A stretch of DNA of 63,290 nt, the filler included, from Basidiobolus ranarum (Eukaryota), in assembly GCA_040143965.1 (NCBI GenBank). It is 2 parts of 2 records of this genome, joined end to end, with 100 filler letters (N's around TTAATTAATTAA, not from the genome) between each part and the next. Parts side by side here need not be neighbours in the genome. Positions count along the whole stretch, not along the records: positions 31,835 to 63,290 come from JASJQH010000089.1; 1 more part is not named here. One strand, 5' to 3'. Of the stretch, positions 991 through 59,612 are shown one piece after another; the stretch's first letter is position 1; every line of letters starts with the position of its first letter. Below the pieces are notes generated by a model. It had not been told where the DNA came from. It was given only the letters and a program-made list of their open reading frames with translations, and did not search any database. The translations under genes and the position numbers were made by a program.

Positions 991-2586
991 ACAATAGAGA
1001 GAGCTTCTTCTTTTATTTCCATAAAGTAGACCCAAGGGTATCTTGTATAAACAGCAATAAAAGTGATTAAATATCTTTTTCCATATAAAGATACACTTTG
1101 CATAGAGCTGCACATATCTGAATGAATTAGAGTTAATTTTTTAAAAGATTTTATTAGACTAGAGCTCTTGTATGGTTGCCTGGCTTGTTTGCTATATATA
1201 CAACCCCCACAGATTTCCATTTTGGTTGGGGGGCTAATTGGAATTCCAGAAATTAGTCAATTTTTGCTCATTTTGCTTAAAGAATCAAGTCCAATATGGC
1301 CAAATCACTTATGCCTTAAGTGAATAGTTTCTTGATTAGAATAACTGATATATACACATAAACCTCTTGGATTATATGTGAGTGTGTATAAGTTCTGGTC
1401 CTTTTCTCCCAAAGCTAAATAATTCCCATTTTGATCAGTGATGGTGCATCCTGACTTATCTAAATTGATTCTTAGTCCTTCTGAAGTGGCCTTGCATAGA
1501 GATATTAGGTTCTTGGCAATCTATGGAACATGCAGTACATCCTTAAAGTTATACACTTTCTCTTCAGAAGCTCCAGTTAAACTGACTTAAATTGTTCCCA
1601 TTCCAACAGCATCCAATGTGTGGTCATCTCCCATGAAAACTGTCCTAATTGGGATTTCTTCAAAGTTTACAAACTAATGTTTTTCATTTATGAAATGTTG
1701 GGAGGATCCCAAATCAGTATACTATGTCTGAGAATCCTTGTTGGTAGTCATAGATAGAGCAGATATGAACAAGTGATCTTCTGTTGTAGCCACATTTCCA
1801 GATTCAGTACATCTTTCTTTTTTGCAATTCTTTCAAAACAATCTTTGCTTAAATGGTCAGTTTTTTTGCAGTAATCACAGAATGTTACTTTTCTTCTTAA
1901 AGTGCTCTTGGTCTTCATAGGAAGGCTTCTCATAGCCTATTAAGCATTTTCTTCATTCTTTTGGTTGGATCCCAATTTGCATATATCTTCATCCAGAAGT
2001 CTGCTAAATATATAATTTAAGGTCTGATTTTTAGTTATTGATTCTGGAGCCATTACTAGGCTCTAAACTCATGTGACAGGCTATTCAGGACTGTAACAAT
2101 AAATATCTTGATCAGTGGTAGGTACTCCAATGCATTCCATTTCAACTACTATCATAGTAGCTCTACTAATTTGTGATTTATTATCATTTCCTGGCTTCAT
2201 CTTTAAGTTAAAGAGTTGTGCTGTTAGAGCCATGTTGTTGGTAGCAGAACATATTTGGTAGGTGTCTTCCAAGACTCTCCATTCTTTCTTGACAGTTTTA
2301 GCTCTTGAACATTGAATTAGCAATTTGTCTTTAACATTGAGACAAATTATGTCAAAGAGACTTTGTTCTATTTTAACCTGGAGTAAAACTTTGGTTGCTG
2401 AGAGTTTTGCATTGTTTTCTTCTCCTATAACAGTATCCCAAAGTCCTTTTTCTAGCAGCAGCATGTTCATTCTAATTTTCCAAACTTGACCATTAGTTCC
2501 ATTCAATTTTTCCAAGGAGGGAGAGTTCCACAAATTTGAGAAGTAAACATTACCAAGAGTGCAAGCTTGGGGCTCATAATTTGTTA
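991..2586 (-). mobile_element. Degenerate Ty1/copia LTR retrotransposon (gag, zinc knuckle, protease, pre-integrase, integrase start), with stops and frameshifts
   Basis: ORF 2081-2602 EKLNGTNGQVWKIRMNMLLLEKGLWD is copia gag-like. ORF 1748-1933 carries a CCHC knuckle, CDYCKKTDHLSKDC. ORF 939-1220 ICGGCIYSKQ...LIHSDMC...YLITFI is integrase-like. A PBS-like attatgagccc follows ...taaca on the - strand at ~2570-2586. Confidence 0.9.
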
Positions 2587-2601
2587 AAGCATTAGGGATC
2601 A

Positions 2602-2929
2602 TGTTGGGAGTGGTTTGGAGAATTAGAGAAATTGGTGGTTTTCACTTGTGGATTTATTGTGTAAAAAGTTGACATTAATTGTTTTAGCAATATGTAAGTA
2701 AAGTAACTTCTAAAATGCACTAAGAAATGTCTCAGGAATATGTGTGCAAAGTTTGGGGCTTCTAGCACATGTTTGAAAAATCTATATATTTGAGAACTTC
2801 TAAGTTAGTTAGTATATTCCAAGTAAATTCCAATTGAGAAAAATGAACAATATCTTAGTGAATTATAAGCTATCAAAGTACTAAGCTATATATAACTGTA
2901 TTGGTGTTTAAGCAATACTAATTCCAACA
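2602..2929. mobile_element. LTR-like element, copy A (TGTTG...CAACA)
   Basis: Canonical inverted LTR termini tgttg (2602) and caaca (2929); homologous to 2977-3303 and 46961-47257. Confidence 0.8.
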
Positions 2930-3519: not shown

Positions 3520-4700
3520 TAAGAGACTATTCAATGATGGCTTAAGAGAGTTGGCCATATTGGATTTGGTTAATTACACAAAATGATCAAAAACTGCATA
3601 ATTTCTGGAATTCAAATTTACTCCCCAGCCAAAATGGAAATTTGTGAGGGTTATGTATATGGAAAACAGGTCAGGAAAGCAATCAAGAGCTCTGGTTTAA
3701 TAAAATCTGTCAAAGATAATGATTTAATTCAATCAGAACTTGTGGACCTGTGCTAAATATATTTTTAGGTGGAAAATGATAGTTGATCCCACTTTTTGCT
3801 TATTATACAAGATACACCATGATTTAACTGATGAAAAGAAAAGAAGAAGGTCTCCCTGATTTTAGAGATTTCAAAACTCTTGTGAAGACTGAGACTGGAA
3901 CTAAAGTTAAGAAAATACATATACATATTAGGGCAGAATATACTCCAACAGTATTTAATCATTTTTGCAAAATTCAAGGCATTAACTAGGAAGCTATTGC
4001 CTCATACTCACCTCAATAAAATGGAGTTGATGAAAGAGCTAACAGGACTACAATTAAAATGGCAAGATTCATAATAAATGCAATAAGCTATATATCTGCT
4101 TTGGGCCAGATAAGACAAGCCCTGCATTATTAGTCTTATATGTAGAGGACATTATTGTAGCAACCAATGACATAGAGACTTTGGAGAAATCCATATCCAG
4201 CTTATCTACCAGATTCCAAAGGACTGATCTTGGTGAGCTCATGTACTATCTTGGAATCACAATTAAGATAGATAGAACTAGCAAAATAATAACTTCAAGC
4301 CAGTCCATGTATATCCTAGATTTATTCAAGAAGTTTATAATGGAAGAATGCAATCCAGTAACTACCCCAATGCAGACAAATCTGACCTGGACTACAACTA
4401 GCTCTAATCAGACATTCTGGGTCTAAATGAAATGAATATCTTTGTTGAAACATTGCCTGATATTTTAAACTGGGGAAGAGATATTGTAGCCAGGAGAGCG
4501 ACAAGATGATACATGTTTATTTACCCTAATGGAGCTATTTCTTGAAACTCAAGGAAACAACCTGCTGCAGCACTTTTAACAATAGAAGTGCTGTACAAGG
4601 CTGCTTGTGAAGGAGCAAGAGAAGTGACATGATCAAGAAATTCTTAAAAGATTTGGGCTATTCTCAAAAATCACCAAATACAATATTTACTGATAATCAA
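3520..4700 (+). mobile_element. Second degenerate copia copy (pre-integrase, integrase, RT, RNase H fragments), opposite orientation
   Basis: 3634-3750 matches the reverse complement of ~1100-1220. RT motif L.LYVEDIIVA (degenerate YVDD) at ~4130 and DLGELMYYLGI in ORF 4181-4426. RNase H-like NSRKQPAAALLTIE at ~4545. Confidence 0.85.
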
Positions 4701-9143: not shown

Positions 9144-9194
9144 TCTTGACCCGTAGGTTGATCTTGACCCGTAGGTTGATCTTGACCCGTAGGT
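9144..9194. repeat. 18-bp tandem repeat, 2.8 copies (tcttgacccgtaggttga)
   Basis: Seen directly in the divergent mei2/BCK1 intergenic region. Confidence 0.95.
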
Positions 9195-20683: not shown

Positions 20684-21038
20684 TTAGTTGGCCTTCTTAC
20701 GGAAAGAACAACCTTCGGTCAAACGGGCACGACCACCGGTAGGTTGGCAGAGAACAGTAGCGCAAGAACCGCACAAGACGACAGTTTGGGCATGGGAGAA
20801 AACGGTGGTAATGTTGAAACAACCGGGGCACTTAACATCCATGAAATAGGAGTTAGGAGATTGCACCAAACGCTTAAGCTTGTGAGTGTTCTTCTCGTGC
20901 TCGAGAGTAGGGTTAAGGAGATCGACAGCCAACTAAAGAAGAACAATTCAATTAAACTTATCCATCTAACAAAATGAATCCATCCGTCTAACTAATCAAT
21001 TCATCATATACACTGTTGTTAATATCACTTACCACCAT
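20684..21038 (-). CDS. RPS27: 40S ribosomal protein S27 (eS27); 6-nt first coding exon, one intron
   Basis: ATGGTG|gtaagt...ttag|TTGGCT gives [10 protein letters not shown]...[21 protein letters not shown]...CSFRKK. Confidence 0.97.
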
Positions 21039-28742: not shown

Positions 28743-29444
28743 ATGTACACTTTAACTCCCTTCCTTATCTTGTCTATCTGGCTTCATAGCTTCATCGTGC
28801 AGCCTTTACCATTGTACAATACTAACGTTCAGAATATGAATCGATCAGACTCGGGCATGCTGGTCCTACCAAATGCTTACCTACCAAGTAGTATCCAAAC
28901 CAAGCTCTCCAGGAGGAATCGAAATTCCACGGGTAACCGTTATCAAGGAAATCAGTCAGGTGGTAGCCCCAACAATAACAACAGCAATAATGGAAATACA
29001 CGCAGCACCGGGTACAAAAGCAATGACAGAGTAAATGGGAACAATAACAATCAGAGCAGTAATAGTAAAGGCAATTCATCTGGAGCCATAGGCACTCTCC
29101 AGTTCCGATTTAATAACGGGCAATGCACTGATTGGGCAGATGCTAGATATGCTCAATTAACAGGCCATCACGTAGATTGGTCAGGCGATGCGTTGAGTTG
29201 GCCTTCTTCAGCTCGTAACTCTGCTGGGTGGACCGTATCAAGCCAGGCGAAGTCGCCATCCATTATTGCTCTGCAACCCGGAGTTCAGGGCGTCGGAAGT
29301 GATGGTCATGTGGCGGTTGTTGAAAGTATTGAATCCAATGGAGACGTTTATACCAGCAATTACAATTACAATGGTGGACCTTATATCAAAACCTTTGTTA
29401 CTTTTAAGCCAGGAAATGGGGTTAGTTTTATCTGGCATAACTGA
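28743..29444 (+). CDS. Secreted CHAP-domain (cysteine/histidine-dependent amidohydrolase) protein, intronless
   Basis: Hydrophobic N-terminus MYTLTPFLILSIWLHSFIVQP, N/S/G-rich linker, then GQCTDWA (catalytic Cys), WSGDALSW, GHVAVVE (catalytic His) and SNYNY. Confidence 0.88.
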   Translation: MYTLTPFLILSIWLHSFIVQPLPLYNTNVQNMNRSDSGMLVLPNAYLPSSIQTKLSRRNRNSTGNRYQGNQSGGSPNNNNSNNGNTRSTGYKSNDRVNGNNNNQSSNSKGNSSGAIGTLQFRFNNGQCTDWADARYAQLTGHHVDWSGDALSWPSSARNSAGWTVSSQAKSPSIIALQPGVQGVGSDGHVAVVESIESNGDVYTSNYNYNGGPYIKTFVTFKPGNGVSFIWHN

Positions 29445-30134: not shown

Positions 30135-31220
30135 ATGAAGTGGTTTGGATTAATCATCGCCTCGTTGTCATTGAGCTATACAGCTTTGGCAACTCCAATC
30201 ACCAAACGTCAAGATCTTACTACCATTGACACCAAAGAGCTCGGTATCCTCAAGACTCATGCTAGATATGCGTCAGCTGCTTATTGTCCTCAGGCTAAGG
30301 TAACAGATTGGTCATGTGGTGAACGTTGTGTAGGCCGTCTGAATGTAACAACCTACTTTACCAACGATGCTACCGGCATAGCCGGATATATTGGTTACAA
30401 CAACGAAGAAAAGAAAATTGTCATTTCATTCCGCGGGTATGGGTTCTTGTGGACATAAAGCAATTGAGATCGATTCAACTAATATCTTGTGATTCTTATA
30501 GATCCTCTAATTGGGCTAACTGGGCAAAGAATCTGGCCATTCTACCAAAAACATTTGTCTACCCTACGGCAAACGAAAATGTCAAAGTCCACAGCGGTTT
30601 CTATGAAACTTATTCCAGCGTTGAAACAACTGTTCGTTCAGGCCTTAAAGATGTCTTGACACAACTAAAAGATGAAACTGATCCATACAAATTAGTCATC
30701 ACTGGACATTCCTTGGTGAGTTGAATCAATAATAGTTCATTCTTCACCCATTCATTAATCACTAATGGACTTGTTTCAGGGAGCGGCGGTCGCAACTTTC
30801 TGCGCCATGGATATCAAGAGATTTTATTTAAATCCTCGCAGTGGAAGATCCTTCAAGTCAGAGTTACTAATCATTGATCGCTCACAAATATACCTACACA
30901 CTTATGGACAACCTAGAGCCGGAAACGCTGATTTCTCACAACTAGTGTATAATACCTTTGGCTTGAATACTACACGCACAACATTGGCAAGAATCACTAA
31001 CAATCGTGACCCAGTGACTAGACTTCCACCTCAAGATATGGGTTATTTCCATCATCCACATGAGATCTACATCCGCAAGGACTCTACCACCGTAGCTTGT
31101 CAGGATGTTATCGGTGGCAAAGTAAGAGAGGACCCTAATTGTATCCTCGGAGTAACTTTTCCAATTGGCTTCAGTGATCATGGAAAATACTGGGATATCC
31201 AGTTTGGTACTGGTTGCTAA
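30135..31220 (+). CDS. Secreted class 3 lipase, two introns
   Basis: Signal peptide plus KR site; YASAAYC, IVISFRG/S, VHSGF, TGHSL/GAA (GxSxG), TYGQPRAGN, DPVTRLPP, DH.KYW. Confidence 0.93.
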
Positions 31221-31734: not shown

Positions 31735-31834
31735 NNNNNNNNNNNNNNNNNNNNNNNNNNNNNNNNNNNNNNNNNNNNTTAATTAATTAANNNNNNNNNN
31801 NNNNNNNNNNNNNNNNNNNNNNNNNNNNNNNNNN
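31735..31834. other. Assembly gap / artificial contig spacer (44 N + TTAATTAATTAA + 44 N)
   Basis: Exactly 100 nt with a central palindrome that gives stops in all six frames. Confidence 0.97.
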
Positions 31835-33443: not shown

Positions 33444-36400
33444 CTAATTGGTGCCTAAATCTTGTTGAATGACTAATGAGTAGTATTGTCCCTTAAGTCC
33501 CATTAGTTCATCGTGAGTGCCCTGTTCGTTGACCACTCCATTCTTGAACACGTAGATGACATCTGCCTTCTGAATGGTGGATAGACGATGAGCGACCGCA
33601 ATGGTGGTTCTACCCTTGGCTGCGTTATCAAGTGCCGTTTGAACCACCTTCTCTGACTCGGCATCCAAGGCGGAGGTGGCCTCATCCAATAACAGAACCT
33701 TAGGGTTTCTGATCAAGGCGCGAGCAATGGCAATACGTTGTTTCTGACCACCAGAAAGTTGAGAACCTTTGCTACCAAGTGGGGTGTCATATCCCTTGGG
33801 AAGTCCTACGATGAATTCATGGATGTTGGCATCGCGTGCCGCTTGTTCAATCTCTTGTTGTGAAGGAATACGATCGACCAAACCGAAGCAGATGTTTTCC
33901 CTAATGGTCATATCGTAGAGAGTTGGCTCTTGACCGACCAAGGCGATGTGTTTACGTAAGTCATTGATGTTCATTTGACGGACATCCTTGCCATCGATCA
34001 TTACATTTCCGGAAATAACGTCGTAGAAACGCTCGGTAAGGCCAATGACGGTACTCTTACCACATCCAGATGGACCAACCAAGGCAGCATATTGTCCAGG
34101 TCGGATATCAAGGTTGAGTCCTCGAAGAACAGCCACACCTGGACGTGTTGGATAGCGGAAGTGGACGTTATCGTAAGTGACACGACCTTCTATGGCATTC
34201 ACCTTGTCTCCTTCGTTGGTAGAAACATCGATCAAAGGTTGACGATCCAGAAGATTAATGATATGACTGGCAGCGGATTTGGCTTTACTGATGTCTGGGA
34301 CGAAGGAGAAGATGTTACCAGCACTTTGAGCACCGAATACGATGGCCATGAAGATGACCATGAACTTCTGAAGATCGTACTCCCCATTAGCGATAAGGGT
34401 ACCACCATACCAGAAACCAAGAGCGTTTACCAAGAATACGATGGCTTGTGAGAGAGCGAAGACGAAAGATGAGCCGAATGCATTCTTGATGCCTTCCTTC
34501 ACTGGTCCCTCGAGTTCCTGGTGGTACATATCACATACATCCTTCTCACGAGTGAGCGAGGCGACGGTACGCACTGCGGAGGCGGCTTCACAGGCAAGTT
34601 GTGCAGAATATTCGTATGCACGTTTCTGCTGCTCTTGATAACCATTCATCATCTTCATTCTGATCACACCAGCACCCATCAACACTGGCACACATGCGAC
34701 TACTACCAGGGTAAGCTTCCATCCGTACACAAAGCCGATAATGAAACCACCGACAATTGTGCAGAACACTTGGAGAATCGTACCGAGCGTAACACCGCTT
34801 ACACCTTGGACGTGAGTAGCATCAGTGGAAAGGGCTGAGACCAAGGCACCAGTGTTATTGGAGTCTCTATCGAACCATCCAATCTCTTGACGAAGCATTG
34901 CATTGAAAGCTCTGGAACGAATTCTCTCAATCAATCTTTCACCAGCGATACCAAAGAAGGTGCCCTGAGCAGTGTTGGAGATAAAGGCACAGCAGGCGAT
35001 CACCAAGAACATGGATGCCCAGAAGTTAATGTCCTCGATTAAAGTAGGGTTTCCTTTATACATGACAGCCATGATCTTCGAGAACAAAATAGCAAAAATG
35101 GGGGTGACCAAGCCGGAGACGATCGATCCAGCCAAACCAAGCAACATGAAAGATAGCTCAGGTTTACTCAATAGATAAACACGGTAGATAACGTATATAA
35201 GGGAATGGCTCTTTTCTTCATCACCATTTTCAAGGCTTAATTGGTTTCCAGTAGAGTACATCGACTGAATGGTGGTTTTACGTCTTAGTTGGGAGTCAAT
35301 CGATTTAACAGCGTCGATATTGGTATCTTCTGGAGGCAGTGTGTTGTCAAGATCATCGTCATCTTTCTTCGTGATTCTCTGGAGTTCAACCAACTTGTAG
35401 TATGCACCTTTAGATTCAATCAGTGATTTATGTGTTCCTTGTTCGACGATGTCGCCCTTCTCCATCACGATAATTTGATCGGCATTACGGATGGTGGAAA
35501 GTCGATGAGCAATAACAATGGTAGTTCTACCAGAACTAGCGCGGTCCAATGCTTGTTGAACGATCCCTTCCGATTGAGTATCTAGGGCGGATGTAGCCTC
35601 ATCCAGAAGCAATATACGAGGATCCTTCACGATGGCTCTGGCGATGGCAATTCTCTGTTTCTGTCCGCCAGAAAGTAGGAAGCCTCTTTCACCTACGTGG
35701 GTATCATATTGATCCGGTAGCAAGGTGATGAAATCATGAGCATTGGCCATTTTACACGCTTCTTTGATGAGCTCCATCTTCTTCTCGGGAGAAGCGTTCT
35801 CGTGAGGAGTTCCGATTAATCCGTGGGCTACATTTTCTGCGATAGTGCATCTGAATAGAGTTGGCTCCTGAGAGACAAGTCCGATTTGTCTTCTCAACCA
35901 GTGGACATTTAACTCATCAATTGGAGTGCCATCCAAAAGAATTTCTCCTTGAATAGGATCATAGAATCTTTCCAACAATTGGATGATTGTAGATTTACCA
36001 GAGCCACTAGCACCTACCAACGCAACCGTGTGACCAGGTTGGATAGTGATATTGATTCCTTGCAAGATGGGAACATCAGGACGAGATGGGTAGTGGAAGT
36101 AAATGTTACGGGCTTCAATTAATCCTTGAGTTGGCTGAGTAGGCTTAATTCCTTCCTCAGAAAACGAGTCAATCAGTGGGATTCTATAAATAGCCTCATA
36201 CAGTTTCGCGGCCGCACCCTGAGCAAACGAGAAAGCCTGGAGATTTGGGGCAATATGACCAAGAGAGAAAGCACCAATCATCACAGCGAAGAAAACGTTC
36301 ATCACCTGACCCACGTCAAGTTCGTTATTGTTGATAAGTTTCCCGCCAAACCAGAAGGCAAGTGAATAAGCTGCATAAATGATAAGAAAGATCACACCGA

Positions 36401-37317
36401 TACCCAATCCGGTTAGAAGGGATTTTTTCATTCCTTGCTTCTTGGCATTGGCGATGTTCACATCGTACATATCCGCCAGTTTCTTCTGCTGACCAAAAGC
36501 TACAGTGGTTCGAATGGAGGAGAACACCTCTTCAGCGAGGGTTCCTGAAAGGGAGTAGTAATCCAAAGCTTTCTTGACGTATTTCGAATTGAAGAAATTC
36601 AAAACTCCCACGGAGATGGCAATTAATGGGATAATAACACACAACACCAAAGTGAGCTTCCAGTTTCTAGTGAAAGCGATGATAAAAGCAGAGATGAAGG
36701 TTGCGATGTAATTGATTGTTTGTGGAGCCTTTTCCGAGATACCGTCTTGAACCAAATGGGTATCGCTGGTGATTCTGGTGGTCACCTCACCAGCACCCAA
36801 TTTATCAAACCAAGCAATATCTTGACGAAGAACCGCTTCCAAGTATGACTCACGGATTTTTCGTGTTTGACGTTCACCGGCATAGACCCATGTGCACATG
36901 TAGCCGTATGTGGTAACCAGAACAGCTATGGCGAGGTACACGAAGTACAATGCGTATTTACCGATCTCTTTCTTGAATTGATCTGGTGTCATTGTTCCCT
37001 GCATCCAACCACTCATAACACCTACCATCTCACCGAAAATAATTCTAAAGCAAAACGAAGAGTTAGTTAGTGAATGGAAACTAAATGGAGGTTCTCTTCA
37101 TTTCTACTTACGTCATAACAGGCATACCAGCGCCTGCAATCATGGCACAGACAATACCTATGATCATGAGAGTCCAATCGAAAGATGTGGCGAAGTTGAA
37201 TAACTCTCTCATGGAAACTTTGGTTTCCTTCACATTGGTCTTGGTATCCAAGGGGATCTTTTCATTCAAAGTCGATTCCCTGTCGTTAGCGGAAACTTTC
37301 CGCTCATTAGTCGCCAT
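33444..37317 (-). CDS. MDR1: Full-size ABCB (MDR/P-glycoprotein) transporter, one intron
   Basis: Two TMD-NBD halves; Walker A GASGSGKS and GPSGCGKS, LSGGQKQRIAIARA, LLLDEATSALD. Exon 1 ends GMPVMT|gtaagt. Confidence 0.97.
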
Positions 37318-37920
37318 AGTAATATAAAAAAATTGGATATGTGGTTAGATAGTGGGAAATGGGCCCAATATATACTGGAGTCACACTCAACCGGAGAAAC
37401 ATTGATAGTGGGCGAATTTCCGGTATACTACGCAAAAACGGAACCCCTCCGAAGTAAACTAACTTTAACGTTCGACCAATCAGATCGCTCTGTTAGGGAA
37501 AGAAATAGAGTTTCTCCGAGAGGTGATCTAAATTTCCGGAAAGTAGGCATGAGATTTTCCTTGAGCTCTGAATGGCGCACCTGCTAAATTCGGCCAATAT
37601 CAAGTCCATCCCACACTATTGCCAAATCCTAGTTCATTCGAGTTACCTATTCTATATTGCATTGAGTTACACTGTGCACTGCTTGTTCGTTGCTCAATTT
37701 CTTGCTAATGAACTAGATGGTGCCTCTAACTTCTATTCATTTACCAACAATAGCATGAATATGGTCTGCATACGATAACATTCAAATCAGAATCTATACA
37801 AGATAGACATGAAGATACCAACATTCTAATCATATGGAAAATAATCATCTTTATCTTTCCAAATCGAGTATTTCTAGATCTGACCAACACCGTGCATATT
37901 AAACTAATTTTGCGGTGTAG

Positions 37921-37988: not shown

Positions 37989-38845
37989 TGGTGGCTAAGA
38001 AACAGATCCCAAAATAGTCACACTACCACTACCAATGGAAGAAATACCAATAACTTAAACCGCACAATCCTAACTTTAGTTTAAATGAAATCACCTTTGT
38101 ATAATCCTAACTTGGGAATTATATGAAATCATTCTTGATGGATGTTTGATTGCATTTGGATGTAATTGGATTAATAGTTCCATGTGAAGGTGATTCTCTA
38201 AATGTGATTCTCACTAAGTGCTGTGAACTTTATAGGCTGATGAAAGTGCTAGTACCACCCTTGTATTACTCATGAATCATCATCAATCTATATAACCGCT
38301 CTATTTCCACCAAAGATTATTCTCACCTCTATCCACGCTACCTATTTCCCTTATATTAAATGTTGAGTTCGTCCTAGATGATAGTGTTTACCACCCTCTC
38401 TCCAAATCTATGATACTGGAGTGAGTCTAAATGTAATTTCTTATACGATATGTAGTTTGACGTTGGTGGGATTTCTCTAATCGACTCTTCTACTTCTTCT
38501 TCCAAGTCGGTCTTCGGCTTTTGATGAGCTGTATTACCTCAACACCTGAAATCCTTCCCGATCTATTTATGATCAGTGCACTCCTTGACTAGGACTGTTC
38601 TCTGCGTATTTTAAGTAGTAGGGCGGATCTGAAAACGCAAGTTCACTCTGATGTACATTTACGGCCATTGTGATGCCTAAATCACCATCATAACCAGATA
38701 AAACCTGGAAGGTAAATAGAGTGACGCTTGAACTCACCTTCGTCATTCTAGACTTGCTCGTAGTGAAGGACATCTTGGCGACGCGGAGCCATGAAATTGG
38801 TGAAGAACGAGAGTTTGCTACGGCCGGTTACCTATATATATATAT

Positions 38846-39223
38846 ATGTTCCAGAGAGCGGACTCCAGTGGTATGTATTCAGCAAGTTATTGCGACTCTG
38901 TATTCATAGAGAAAATCAACGTCAACCTCAAGTCTACCACTAGTGTGGTAAAAGAGAATGTGGGAGAAACCTTTATGGTAGCCGAAGGCAAGACGAAAAC
39001 AAATGAAAGTAATGTCGAATTTGAGAGAGCTCAGGCCGAGGGATACGCACAGAGTGCTGTCGAGAAATTTACGGGAGATGTGAATGATACGATAGGCAGT
39101 GAACAGATGCAGGCTGAGAGTACGATTAGCCATACCAAGGGTGATACCCACATGAGGGACCAACACAGGCGAGACCTGCCACCCCAGATGTTTCGCAAGA
39201 GGCTCCACAAAATAATGAATTAA
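38846..39223 (+). CDS. CsbD/Hmp1-like small stress protein, possibly degenerate
   Basis: VKENVGET...AEGK...EFERAQAEGYAQSAVEKFTG..NDTIGSEQMQAE.TISHTKGD resembles fungal CsbD-family (Hmp1) repeats; start codon uncertain. Confidence 0.6.
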   Translation: MFQRADSSGMYSASYCDSVFIEKINVNLKSTTSVVKENVGETFMVAEGKTKTNESNVEFERAQAEGYAQSAVEKFTGDVNDTIGSEQMQAESTISHTKGDTHMRDQHRRDLPPQMFRKRLHKIMN

Positions 39224-40773
39224 TTCTATGGGTGAAATTTCTTGAATAAATAGTGCTACAAATTAAATATTATCACGCATATAGTTCAATGGTTCAAATA
39301 CCGGTGGGGAGTGAGTGATTTGCTTGGCATCCACGATCATGGTACCCCGATTGTGTAGGACAGCAGTTGAATAAATTCCATTTATGATATCAAGAAATCA
39401 AGTCTCACCAAACTTTCAGACAAACCGCTGTTCTTTGGGGTTGATACCTGGTTGTCAAACTTATACTGTGGGTCTGGATCCTTTTTCAAGCGACTTTGGA
39501 TACTTATAAACGTAAACCAATGCTCACTGGCTCTCCGTTCACTAACTCCTACTCCAGGTGGTGCTTTTCGAGAAACCAATTCCGATACATCTGAATCTCC
39601 AAGAAGTAACACTGGAATCATGAGGTCATTGGCGACCGCGCCACAAGGGGGACTACTGGTTGCACTTCGTACAAATTGCGTCTCCAGATTCTTTTCTGTG
39701 ACGAAGTATGTCAGTGAAGTGAAGTGATTAGGTGGAATTTATGAATTGATTTTTCTCAAGTGATTTGGCCAGAAAGTGCTTCCTCTGGTTTCACCTAATC
39801 GAGAAAAGAAACACGCTCGCTCGCATTTGCCGAAGTTACAAAAGTTGGTGATTGTTTAGGAGATATTAATTTGCGTGTATGTTCCCAAGAGTAGATAACA
39901 AGAAGTTCATTCCTGTGTCACATGAATCAATACATTTATAACTGTTAAATTGCACTATAATGTTATAATTAACCTGACATCTATAGGAATACTCAGTTGT
40001 CAAGGAATGAGTTCATATTAAGTTTAGTTTATTGTATACACTTGCTTGGTCAATGATTTCACTCTTTCTGCGGCCTAAAACCTCAGCTTTGGTAAGTTAT
40101 TGGCTCGACCAGAAATGGGAACTCTTAAACACTCACACAGTTTGAGAACACTAGTCCTTATCACTCTTAAAGGAATGACCTTAACACTCTGACTTATGAA
40201 CGTGGAAGAATAGAGAAGAAACTAGATCATATTGTATTGGATGCAAGCTCATAGATCAAAAATAGGATATTCATCTATTTAAAATAGCACAATAAATATG
40301 CAAATTTAATACAGCAAGTTGATTAACCATTATTGAGATGCGTTTGGTGAAGCAAGATGCTGGATTAACTGGAACCCTATTGAGAACGATCTATACATGA
40401 TAGATTTACAGCGGAGCTCTGATAACACCTCCATATTTCAAATATTCCAACACAATATGTAACAAATGGCATATTAAGAACAATCTAGAATTATTGGTAT
40501 ATTGCCTGAATAATGAAAGAGAAAAGAATGACTTCGAGTATGTTTCAATAGAACTCAACAGTAAATAGTAATATGGGAAAATAAATTAATACGATATGTT
40601 GTGAATGTATATACGCGCTGAAAGCATTGCCTGACCAAGATATTCGTTACTAACATTAGTGAAAACTTTCTGCATCAACAATATCAACATAGCATGAATT
40701 AGAGAACGAATGAATTTCTTTTAATTCGACAAAGTGTTATTGATATAACTAAGTTATTTCTTAATTACAAGCA

Positions 40774-41973
40774 TTAAAGAGTACGTGATTGGTTTTGTTG
40801 ACCACGTCTTCCGTTAAAACCTCTTTCATATTTGTTATCTTGCTCGTCTTCTTCATATTGACGACCATAACGAGAGCGAGGATAGTTTTGCTGACCGCGT
40901 TTACCATTAAAACCTCTTTCATACTCGTTATCTTGCTCATCCTCATATTGACGACCATAACGAGAGCGAGGATAGTTTTGTTGACCATGTCTTCCGTTAA
41001 AACCTCTCTCGTATTCGTTATCTTGTTCATCCTCATATTGACGACCATAACGAGAACGGGGATAGTTTTGTTCACCACGTCTTCCGGCCAATCCTCTCTC
41101 GTATTCATTATCGCGCTCATCTTCTTCATATTGACGACCATAACGAGAGTGAGGATAGTTTTGTTGGCCACGTCTGCCGTTAAAACCTCTTTCATACTCG
41201 TTATCTTGCTCATCCTCATATTGACGACCATAACGAGAGCGAGGATAGTTTTGTTGACCATGTCTTCCATTGAAACCTCTCTCGTACTCATTATCTTCCT
41301 CTTCGTACTGGCGACCATAACGAGAGCGAGGGTAGTTTTGTTCACCACGTCTTCCGGCCAATCCTCTTTCATACTCGTTATTTTGCTCATCTTCTTCATA
41401 TTGACGGCCATAACGAGAACGAGGATAGTTTTGTTGACCACGTCTGCCGTTAAAACCTCTTTCATACTCGTTATCTTGCTCATCCTCATATTGACGACCA
41501 TAGCGAGAGCGAGGATAGTTTTGTTGACCACGTCTGCCGTTAAAACCTCTTTCATACTCGTTATCTTGTTCATCCTCATATTGACGACCGTAACGGGAAC
41601 GAGGATAGTTTTGTTGACCATGTCTTCCATTGAAACCTCTCTCGTACTCATTATCTTGCTCATCCTCTTCGTACTGGCGACCATAACGAGAGCGAGGGTA
41701 GTTTTGTTCACCACGTCTTCCGGTCAATCCTCTTTTGTACTCATTATTTTGCTCATCTTCTTCATATTGACGGCCATAACGAGAACGAGGATAGTTTTGT
41801 TGACCACGTCCTCCATTCAAACCTCTTTCGTATTCGTTTTCTTGCTCATCTTCTTCATATTGACGACCATAACGAGAGCGAGGGTAGTTTTGTTCACCAC
41901 GTCTTCCGGTTAATCCTCTCTCGTATTCATTGTTCTGTTGGTTACGTTCTCCAGACTGTTGGTTGTTGGTCAT
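40774..41973 (-). CDS. 399-aa tandem-repeat protein (12 full + 1 partial units, consensus YERGFNGRRGQQNYPRSRYGRQYEDEQDNE)
   Basis: Intronless ORF with aaaATG context and TATAAAA ~85 nt upstream. Many differences between units are synonymous in this frame and all indels are whole codons. Confidence 0.85.
   Translation of the reverse strand: MTNNQQSGERNQQNNEYERGLTGRRGEQNYPRSRYGRQYEEDEQENEYERGLNGGRGQQNYPRSRYGRQYEEDEQNNEYKRGLTGRRGEQNYPRSRYGRQYEEDEQDNEYERGFNGRHGQQNYPRSRYGRQYEDEQDNEYERGFNGRRGQQNYPRSRYGRQYEDEQDNEYERGFNGRRGQQNYPRSRYGRQYEEDEQNNEYERGLAGRRGEQNYPRSRYGRQYEEEDNEYERGFNGRHGQQNYPRSRYGRQYEDEQDNEYERGFNGRRGQQNYPHSRYGRQYEEDERDNEYERGLAGRRGEQNYPRSRYGRQYEDEQDNEYERGFNGRHGQQNYPRSRYGRQYEDEQDNEYERGFNGKRGQQNYPRSRYGRQYEEDEQDNKYERGFNGRRGQQNQSRTL
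40790..41930. repeat. Coding minisatellite, 87-93 bp unit, ~12.6 copies
   Basis: Recurrent catattgacgaccataacgagagcgaggatagttttgttgaccacgtct on the + strand. Confidence 0.97.
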
Positions 41974-42057
41974 TTTAAAGATTCAAACGATTCTTACTAG
42001 TGTGGTATTTAGTTGAAGTAGTGATCGGATGCAGGAATCGAAAGGATTTTGCCCGAC

Positions 42058-42064
42058 TTTTATA
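42058..42064 (-). promoter_or_regulatory. Candidate TATA box of the repeat-protein gene
   Basis: TATAAAA on the - strand, ~85 nt upstream of the ATG at 41973. Confidence 0.6.
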
Positions 42065-43934: not shown

Positions 43935-45512
43935 TTAGCATTCGAGGCTATCGTATTTTCTGAACAAGAAATAGAAGATCCCAGTCATAACTCCCATCAG
44001 TCCAGTTTGAATTCCAAATACATATACAAAGTTGGGGTCATTACTCCACACTGCCAAGATTAGCCCGATCAAACTGCCACCACAATTGGTGAACAAGAAT
44101 AGAGCAGTAACAACGGATTTAAGTTCAGGCGCAGCTTGTCGGAATGCAAATTCAAGTCCAGTCACCGAGGCGAAAATCTCGGATATTGAGATACCAATGA
44201 ATGGAATGATTTGCCACCAGATGGAAATATCATTGACTGGATCTTGTCCCGCAGGTAAGTTACTCAAGTCGGTGAAATTGTAGTATGGCCCGGTCTTGTA
44301 CACTTGCGATTGAAGAACGGTGACAAAGATGAAGGCTAGAGTTGCGATAGTGAATCCAATGGTAATTCTCGTGATAGGACCAAGGCGGCATCCCATTCTT
44401 CTTAAAATTGGAAAGACAATGGTGTCAAATATAGGAATGGCAACAACTAGAACGAGACTATTGATGAGATTAAGTTGTTCAGGACCGCTGATAAAAGAAG
44501 GACGCTGCATAGTAAGCCCCATATTGATGAAGTTATCTGACATGTTGTAATACAAAGCCCAGTAGAAGGGGTAGAACAAGAATACTAAAGATGCACGCAA
44601 AGTCTTCTTTAGGTCATCCACGAAGGCGTCGTTCCACTCGAATCCGTCCACTTTGGCATAATCCAGCCAATGTTCAATAATCCCATTGGTTTTGGCATTA
44701 TCTAGAGGAGTTTTACGATGAGAAAGAGCATACTTGATACAATTGTAGGTTTTGGAGAGCACGGTGCCGGATGGAGGCTTAACAAAGTAGAATCTTTTGG
44801 CAGAAATAAAAATAATCAGCCCCAATACAAACATAATGGCTGGAAGAGAGAATGCAAGGGGATAAGATCCATAGTTGTTGGCAACAATAGGACAGATGAA
44901 CTGGCCCAGCAACGCGCCAAGGTTAATAGCCCAATAAAAGAAACGGAAAATTCTTTCTACAGTGAGTTGGGAGTCAATGTATACACCCGGAGTCTTGGTT
45001 GCAAAGAGACCCTCTTTAATTTGTTCAGCAGCAAAGGACGAAACATTGGATTTAATGCCACCAGTACCAAAGGCGATGAATGCATATAAGGCAATGATGT
45101 AACCGATCACTCCAAAACTTCCGTCAAGAGAAGTTGGAAGTGCACTAAGTGCCAGGATGATCAAACCGATCATATAAAAGATGGAGAATATGACGATGGT
45201 TTTGAATTTTCCGAGGTATTTATCAGCAATAATGGCTCCAAGGATGGTAGTAAAGTATGCCATAAATTGGAAACCTCTGTTTACGGCAGTTGCGGTACCC
45301 TTACTAAAACCCAGCATCTTTAACATGTAAGGTTGAAATAGGAGAGAGGCCCCATAAAAGGCAAAGCGTTCACATAATTCAGTGATGATGATAAACCAGG
45401 CGGCGATAGGCACTTTTCCAGCAATACGAAGCTTAATATCTTCAGGGTTGAGTTGACTCTCTGTTTCGTAGTCAACTTCTGTGTCATGTTCAATCTTTTT
45501 TTCTCCACTCAT
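43935..45512 (-). CDS. PTR2: POT/PTR2 family di/tripeptide transporter, intronless
   Basis: ELCERFAFYG (ExxERF motif), GAIIADKYLGKFKTI, GTGGIKSNVS, FYWAINLGAL, EIFASVTGLEFA. Likely start MSGEKK at 45512. Confidence 0.96.
   Translation of the reverse strand: MSGEKKIEHDTEVDYETESQLNPEDIKLRIAGKVPIAAWFIIITELCERFAFYGASLLFQPYMLKMLGFSKGTATAVNRGFQFMAYFTTILGAIIADKYLGKFKTIVIFSIFYMIGLIILALSALPTSLDGSFGVIGYIIALYAFIAFGTGGIKSNVSSFAAEQIKEGLFATKTPGVYIDSQLTVERIFRFFYWAINLGALLGQFICPIVANNYGSYPLAFSLPAIMFVLGLIIFISAKRFYFVKPPSGTVLSKTYNCIKYALSHRKTPLDNAKTNGIIEHWLDYAKVDGFEWNDAFVDDLKKTLRASLVFLFYPFYWALYYNMSDNFINMGLTMQRPSFISGPEQLNLINSLVLVVAIPIFDTIVFPILRRMGCRLGPITRITIGFTIATLAFIFVTVLQSQVYKTGPYYNFTDLSNLPAGQDPVNDISIWWQIIPFIGISISEIFASVTGLEFAFRQAAPELKSVVTALFLFTNCGGSLIGLILAVWSNDPNFVYVFGIQTGLMGVMTGIFYFLFRKYDSLEC

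Positions 45513-56287: not shown

Positions 56288-59612
<3,325 letters not shown>

Follow-up and report, generated by a model that had tools for sequence, protein, structure and literature searches.

Profilaggrin and polyubiquitin are leaderless cytosolic polyproteins, tandem arrays whose units are identical as protein and diverged at synonymous sites, and the units of filaggrin, which are rich in Arg, Gly, Gln and His, end as a free amino-acid pool. Precursors of the rhodotorucine A and a-factor type likewise have no signal peptide and consist of tandem copies, each with the Cys of a CAAX motif for prenylation, and their products leave through Ste6-type exporters; in yeast, Ste6 exports a-factor. 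In fungi, Kex2-processed repeat proteins (KEPs) are defined by an endoplasmic reticulum (ER) signal peptide and by repeats separated by Kex2 sites, and a survey counts 43 of them in Basidiobolus meristosporus, the highest number of any strain (Umemura 2020, PMC7329392). Here we describe P0001, a tandem-repeat protein encoded in a stretch of 63,290 nucleotides from Basidiobolus ranarum (assembly GCA_040143965.1), hereafter the window, which is made of two parts of this genome joined end to end. The repeat unit of P0001 has been kept at the amino-acid level while its DNA diverged. We tentatively read the protein as an intracellular, hydrophilin-like polyampholyte with Arg and Tyr as stickers, which would condense, protect a dormant stage and hold a nitrogen reserve; this reading is plausible and falls a little short of probable.

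Coding status of the repeat gene

The P0001 coding sequence (40774..41973, minus strand) is a single exon for 399 aa (~49.3 kDa), which ends with a TAA stop codon at 40774-40776 and contains a single Met, the start residue. Tandem Repeats Finder (TRF) reported a period of 93 nt in 12.4 copies (83% matches) at 40792..41931 on the minus strand, together with a higher-order period of 273 nt in 4.2 copies (86% matches) over 40792-41931. When N[EK]Y[EK]RG is taken as the anchor, the protein is divided into a 14-aa leader, 12 full units (31, 31, 31, 30, 30, 31, 29, 30, 31, 30, 30 and 31 aa in order) and one partial unit of 20 aa. The leader is 16 aa long if the register begins at YERG, and in that register the initial annotation of this locus, which gave 12 full units and a partial one of 29-31 aa behind a 16-aa leader, was reproduced. 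Each unit follows the pattern NEYERG[L/F][T/N/A]G[R/G/K][R/H]G[E/Q]QNYPRSRYGRQYE and its last 3-5 residues form an acidic tail, (E)DEQ(D/N). As had been claimed, the core QNYPRSRYGRQYE is invariant save for one R>H: 11 of the 12 full units carry it unaltered, and the change is found in unit 9. A degenerate back-translation of the core matched the window 11 times, against 0 expected from 100 shuffles. Among unit positions 1-26, 19 are invariant across the 12 units, positions 4 and 18 are changed in one unit each, and the remaining variation is confined to positions 7, 8, 10, 11 and 13, which makes 7-13 the only variable stretch. The Tyr positions (4/4) and the Arg positions 5, 20 and 23 are invariant in the 12 full units; position 18 is Arg throughout save for the one R>H.

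At the DNA level, the units are 77-96% identical to each other. Between the 12 units, the proportion of synonymous differences (pS) was 0.470 and that of nonsynonymous differences (pN) was 0.047, a ratio of 0.10, and in the 13-residue core pN/pS was 0.014. The variable nucleotide columns were distributed 4/4/22 over the three codon positions (n=30, binomial P = 8.8e-6). When the six frames were compared, constraint was present only in the P0001 frame and in the stop-ridden antisense frame of the same codon register (pN/pS 0.15). Because the substitutions among units are biased to synonymous sites in its frame, P0001 is a real coding gene; the initial annotation had named the lack of such a bias as a result that would count against it, and the bias was found. 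Since pS is high and pN low among the units, the array is old, every unit having been held to one amino-acid sequence while the codons drifted. On these substitution patterns, the repeat exceeds what chance or a DNA satellite would give. A block also appears to have been duplicated, units 7-8-9 being ~95% like units 3-4-5, and the unit groups {3,7}, {4,8,11} and {5,6,9} have ~95% DNA identity within them, other pairs being 77-92% identical. No extra copies of the array were found by tblastn in the window, where it occurs at this locus alone.

A long reading frame is no argument for the gene here, as the repeat has no stops and leaves three long frames open over the array. The two other long open reading frames (ORFs) lie over the same repeat, one of 307 aa at 40761-41684 on the minus strand and one of 308 aa, with the look of a multi-pass membrane protein, at 40987-41913 on the plus strand. 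Both have pN/pS >2, and they were ruled out as genes by their values of 2.3 and 3.1; they are side products of the repeat's lack of stops. This opening of three frames would agree with P0001 being a functionless young or decaying repeat ORF, that is, a minisatellite open by chance, expressed or silent, as would its absence from public protein sets and the short, partly degenerate nature of its relatives. However, pN/pS is 0.10 in one frame, 22 of the 30 variable columns are at codon position 3, the unit has been kept between genomes whose ordinary proteins are ~72% identical, and the codon set is restricted. A gene devoid of function is, on this evidence, extremely improbable.

Properties and proposed role of the protein

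P0001 is composed mainly of R (18.0%), E (15.3%), G (13.3%), Q (12.3%), Y (12.3%) and N (10.3%), with 72 Arg, 49 Tyr and 81 Asp+Glu in all. Cys and Trp are absent, as the initial annotation had stated, and Ile and Val are missing too. Within each unit, a basic/aromatic block, RG[F/L]xGRRGxQNYPRSRYGRQ, which bears 3 Tyr, 6-7 Arg and di-RG motifs, is followed by an acidic block, YE(E)DEQDNEYE. The fraction of charged residues (FCR) is 0.39 and the net charge per residue (NCPR) is -0.015. The charge is blocky, with a kappa-like value of 0.31 against 0.156 +/- 0.022 in shuffled sequences, of which 0/500 reached 0.31. The phase-separating N-terminus of Ddx4 has a kappa of 0.237, and a permutant at 0.053 loses separation (PMC7503639). 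AlphaFold2, run on the single sequence, returned a mean pLDDT (predicted local distance difference test) of 38.4 and no secondary structure. The mean Kyte-Doolittle hydropathy (GRAVY) is -2.54. Nitrogen amounts to 1.79 atoms for each residue of P0001, where six neighbouring proteins range over 1.22-1.42, and its R+Q+N share is 40.6%.

We propose that P0001 would act uncleaved, as a full-length intracellular disordered polymer. Each ~30-aa unit would provide a basic aromatic sticker block and then an acidic block, and the 12 units would together form a nearly neutral polyampholyte. The basic/aromatic blocks of one chain could bind the acidic blocks and the Tyr and Arg residues of others, through charge-block and cation-pi contacts, and a change in water activity, salt or pH might then drive a reversible condensation to a coacervate or gel. 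In a dormant or dispersal stage such as the spore, the protein could in this way form an abundant protective matrix and a nitrogen-rich reserve. A hydrophilin is defined by Gly >6% and a hydrophilicity index >1 (PMC11277543). In physico-chemical terms P0001 falls within this definition, since its Gly content of 13.3% and its GRAVY of -2.54, an index >1.0, both lie beyond these values. A further mark of hydrophilins is induction by water deficit or osmotic stress. Its codon use would suit an abundant product: none of the 72 Arg codons is CGA, CGG or AGG, against 7-58% in six neighbours, and TCT (86%), CCT (92%) and CAA (90%) are preferred. The codon use resembles that of the ribosomal S27 exon in the window, and this narrow codon set hints at high expression.

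Several points weigh against this proposal. Invariance within the core extends beyond Tyr and Arg to Q, N, P, S and G, which would be spacers, and is tighter than is usual in sticker-spacer proteins or hydrophilins. A material model leaves this invariance of the core, spacers included, unexplained, and it suggests a specific partner, a modification or a released peptide. The kappa value comes from our own implementation, whose maximum is taken from two fully segregated arrangements, and a low single-sequence pLDDT is weak evidence of disorder. Codon counts within a repeat are not independent of each other, and the S27 comparison comprises 82 codons. Finally, the relatives are only short, partly degenerate models, and a full-length array from elsewhere is not among them. 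If the hydrophilin-like reading is right, P0001 would be a natural, near-perfectly periodic 12-unit sticker-and-spacer polyampholyte, kept exact while its DNA drifted, and it would offer a clean natural model for condensation driven by Arg-Tyr contacts and blocks of charge. It could also help to explain how a gut-passaging fungus brings its spores through drying and digestion.

A core conserved exactly over its whole length is easier to square with a motif for specific binding or modification than with a bulk material, and P0001 could instead be an RNA- or nucleic-acid-binding scaffold or regulator of a cytoplasmic or nuclear granule. Its di-RG/Tyr blocks would then bind RNA, or be methylated by protein arginine methyltransferases (PRMTs) and read by partners, with the acidic blocks as auto-inhibitors. 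The protein is leaderless and predicted to be disordered, and it contains 23 RG and 24 GR dipeptides, with 10 di-RG matches of the form RG(X0-4)RG, a motif reportedly defined by Thandapani et al. in 2013. On the other hand, there are 0 RGG triplets, the net charge is slightly negative, and neither an RRM nor a KH nor another RNA-binding domain was found with Pfam. Core granule scaffolds are usually widely conserved, and no relatives of P0001 were found outside one fungal genus. We regard a nucleic-acid-binding role as rather unlikely.

Over 15-residue windows, the hydropathy of P0001 does not rise above -1.8 (Kyte-Doolittle), and by this measure no signal peptide or membrane segment was found. 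The initial annotation had also reported no hydrophobic signal peptide, together with an in-frame TGA four codons 5' of the ATG, which we located at 41983..41985 on the minus strand. Further upstream, TATAAAA at 42058..42064 (minus strand), at -91 from the ATG and with no ATG in between, is likely a core promoter element; ATTAAA at 40720..40725 (minus strand), 49 nt past the stop codon, is a possible polyadenylation signal. An in-frame ATG at -147 can be joined to codon 7 only via a 42-nt GTAAGA...CAG segment. This candidate intron has no CTAAY branch site and no T-rich tract, while the introns inferred in three neighbours, the ABC transporter, lipase and dynamin genes (n=3), measure 64-68 nt and have both. 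The peptide that would be added from the -147 ATG, MVAWLIFKQISH..., is not signal-like. Two further short upstream ORFs with hydrophobic starts, the only ones that passed the hydrophobic filter, terminate in stops, and in the upstream ORF at -477 the donor-like sites, worked out by hand, are out of frame or beyond its stops. An upstream signal-peptide exon was rejected, since the short hydrophobic ORFs stop and the -147 route needs an atypical 42-nt intron. From the predicted gene model, we conclude that the P0001 gene is single-exon and leaderless.

These results bear on the idea, put forward in one version by the initial annotation, that P0001 is a secreted material of the wall, an adhesive or a tanned (dityrosine/3,4-dihydroxyphenylalanine (DOPA)) material, brought out via a missed signal-peptide exon or when cells lyse, as might happen at the capilliconidia's sticky tip. 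With 12.3% Tyr, set in YP and YG contexts, and plentiful Arg, the protein resembles Tyr/Lys-rich marine adhesive proteins. The B. ranarum fragment P0002 (85 aa), which has a 20-residue hydrophobic start, bears the UniRef label 'Secreted protein'. Nothing in the window corresponds to that start, which passes directly into a degenerate unit at mid-length, and for these reasons it is probably a gene-model artefact. A wall or adhesive material needs secretion, and P0001 has neither a hydrophobic segment nor a usable upstream exon. Pfam searches of the window ORFs of at least 80 aa gave no tyrosinase, laccase or peroxidase domain; they covered 69 of the 85 stop-to-stop ORFs and, from their first ATG, 6 of the other 16, and the 10 left unscanned either overlie the repeat or run antisense to the ABC and PTR2 genes. 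In the literature on the adhesive of Basidiobolus capilliconidia, the titles and the beginnings of the abstracts yielded nothing on adhesive proteins. Secretion as a wall or adhesive material is decidedly improbable.

Possible peptide release, neighbours and relatives

The initial annotation had offered two readings, namely a polyprotein that releases many copies of a Tyr/Arg peptide and an uncleaved, disordered protein. The second gained support from the hydrophilicity, the blocky charge, the missing predicted structure and the missing secretion signal, and it is favoured over the first, which lost ground. What speaks for release is the strong purifying selection on every unit combined with old synonymous divergence (pS 0.47; core pN/pS 0.014), since polyubiquitin and neuropeptide precursors have the same per-unit selection pattern. 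In addition, GRR or GKR is present in 9 of the 13 units, as first reported, the others having GGR (one unit) or GRH (three units). A leaderless polyprotein of this kind would be cut by a cytosolic or vacuolar protease into ~12 Tyr/Arg peptides, with export by an ABCB transporter as a possible further step. However, processing sites are normally kept, and the dibasic positions 10 and 11 (entropy 0.82 and 0.81) lie inside the only variable stretch, 7-13. By unit, the candidate site is RR in 8, KR in 1, GR in 1 and RH in 3 (n=13), and two B. ranarum copies have RS there. P0001 also has no route into the ER, as judged from hydropathy and from the lack of a usable upstream exon, and no Cys/CAAX for an a-factor-type pathway. 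Among the scanned ORFs, the Pfam searches revealed no DUF3328/UstY, tyrosinase, PAM (Cu2_monooxygen), kexin/subtilase or prolyl oligopeptidase domain; homologs of the first three had been proposed as a check on peptide release. Kex2 acts in the Golgi (PMC7329392). A Kex2 route, or that of a peptide made by the ribosome and modified after translation (RiPP), is not supported, because there is no ER entry, the dibasic site is variable and the scanned ORFs of the window gave no DUF3328, tyrosinase, PAM or kexin. A leaderless polyprotein is improbable.

The P0001 gene lies between two transporter genes, and all three are on the minus strand. The downstream neighbour, 3.7 kb away, is a full-size ABCB transporter of the P-glycoprotein/Ste6 type (33444..37344, minus strand, with a 67-nt intron near 37100). 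Its best PDB match is ABCB1 (1137.7 bits), and the Ste6 a-factor exporter 7qkr scored 1026.9 bits. The upstream neighbour, 2 kb away, is a PTR2/POT peptide transporter (43935..45512, minus strand), that is, a peptide importer. Both could be enlisted for peptide release: in a system independent of the ER and of Kex2, the adjacent ABCB would export ~30-residue peptides and the adjacent PTR2 would recover their breakdown products. If true, an early-diverging gut fungus would make ribosomal peptides by a new, non-classical route that needs neither the ER nor Kex2. However, ABCB and PTR2 genes are common and neither neighbour is specific. Such a system is very improbable, and we treat the two neighbours as context only. 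In the interval between P0001 and the ABCB gene, a CsbD-like stress gene at 38804-39220 was rejected, there being no Pfam support for it.

Relatives of P0001 were sought in several collections. At E<=0.01, 0 Pfam families matched, LEA (late embryogenesis abundant), dehydrin and other curated family profiles included, and at E<=10 there was only noise, namely DUF3641 (0.49) and DTHCT (3.4), both far below the cut-off. PDB gave 0 phmmer matches at E<=10, and ESM Atlas gave no usable match, either with the whole protein or with residues 108-257. The initial annotation had stated that a match to a characterised family would remove the novelty of the protein; in Pfam, PDB and the Atlas, no such match was found. 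A phmmer search over 1.84 billion representatives (~15 billion proteins) produced 5 matches, three of which are true relatives. These are three B. ranarum 'hypothetical proteins' of 62-91 aa, and a word-index search of shorter proteins returned the same three fragments only. The near-length word-index search gave 0/8000 scored candidates at E<=0.001. P0003 (1674 aa) and P0006 (1145 aa), at 26-29% identity, are unrelated repeat proteins and were rejected as compositional matches. A scan of metagenome proteins gave 36 pattern matches, of which 0 were confirmed, and a metagenome scan with the degenerate core DNA pattern gave 0 matches. The motif YPRSRYGR had no occurrence in the literature searched, and in the Basidiobolus literature, judged by titles and the beginnings of abstracts, nothing on P0001 was found. 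On the sequences searched, the P0001 family is restricted to the Basidiobolus lineage.

The B. ranarum fragments retain the unit (71-81% identity), and in them degenerate cores stand beside perfect or near-perfect ones. By comparison, a neighbouring SMI1/KNR4 protein shares 73% identity with a protein of B. meristosporus and 72% with one of B. ranarum, which points to the window as part of a further genome of the Basidiobolus lineage. At 71-81% against 72-73%, the repeat unit is no less conserved than an ordinary protein. Neither exact P0001 nor a near-identical match of any length was found in the collection of ~15 billion proteins, whereas 3 of 6 neighbouring ORFs are present there exactly; for this reason, the gene seems to be unannotated in the public record of its own genome, perhaps as a result of repeat masking. 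Since the gene seems to be missing from its own annotation, failure to find it in the B. meristosporus proteome does not show that this species lacks it. More generally, repeat-rich genes may be lost in fungal annotation, perhaps via repeat masking or assembly collapse, and before such a gene is taken for an 'orphan', or as lacking from sister species, raw assemblies should be searched with tblastn.

The window as a whole has a GC content of 33-46%, few long ORFs, no tRNA genes, and genes with introns, features by which it is eukaryotic. Its two parts meet at two runs of N (31735-31778 and 31791-31834), with 12 bases between them. P0009 (233 aa, 28743-29444, plus strand) has a C-terminal CHAP domain (E 6.8e-13), a hydrophobic, signal-like N-terminus and an Asn/Ser-rich linker. 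CHAP is a bacterial-type peptidoglycan hydrolase domain, and P0009 is possibly a horizontally acquired antibacterial enzyme of this gut fungus. Fragments of a copia-type long terminal repeat (LTR) element (gag, DUF4219; RVT_2) are on opposite strands, at 2084-2641 (minus) and 4058-4423 (plus), and a perfect 18-nt tandem repeat of 2.8 copies is at 9144-9194. The remaining genes include the ribosomal protein S27e exon (20687-20932, minus strand), class-3 lipase exons (30323-31217, plus strand), in which a 64-nt intron splits the GHSLG motif region, and dynamin exons (56475-58343, minus strand) with a 68-nt intron. Kinase and SET-domain fragments are also present.

Comparison with known systems

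Like P0001, KEPs and ustiloxin-type (dikaritin) RiPP precursors carry many tandem, conserved short cores with basic pairs and acidic residues between them. They differ in that no signal peptide was found in P0001, that RR is among the least conserved parts of its unit, and that no DUF3328 neighbour was found. The core motif was not found in the three supplementary files of PMC7329392, whose tables list accessions and may not include sequences. Precursors of amidated animal neuropeptides also differ, as P0001 has no signal peptide, its G-RR is variable and no PAM was found in the window. As for the rhodotorucine A and a-factor-type precursors, P0001 shares their leaderless tandem copies, and a Ste6-like ABCB (7qkr, 1026.9 bits) adjoins it. 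In contrast to them, P0001 has no Cys, and the adjoining transporter is nearer to ABCB1 (1137.7 bits) than to Ste6.

Profilaggrin and polyubiquitin resemble P0001 in their architecture and in the way their units are kept. P0001 differs from them in that it has no homology to either, no S100 or ubiquitin fold, and no evident conserved linker cleavage motif, its candidate site being the variable stretch.

Hydrophilins and LEA proteins share with P0001 a composition beyond the hydrophilin values by a wide margin, and P0001 is, in addition, predicted to be disordered, repetitive and leaderless. P0001 has no sequence relation to LEA proteins, and its units are near-invariant. In LEA proteins the repeats are loose, Tyr and Arg are far lower than in P0001, and Lys is far higher.

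The N-terminus of Ddx4 shares with P0001 the blocks of opposite charge (0.237 against a kappa-like 0.31) and the combination of Arg and aromatic residues in RG, YG and FN-G contexts, and a Tyr-Arg sticker grammar is also that of the FUS-family proteins. In Ddx4 and FUS, however, these segments are domains of helicases or RNA-binding proteins and their patterning is degenerate. P0001 has no folded domain and no homology found to either, and it is a free-standing protein of 12 near-identical units. The P0001 family is new, while the kind of protein that it represents is familiar.

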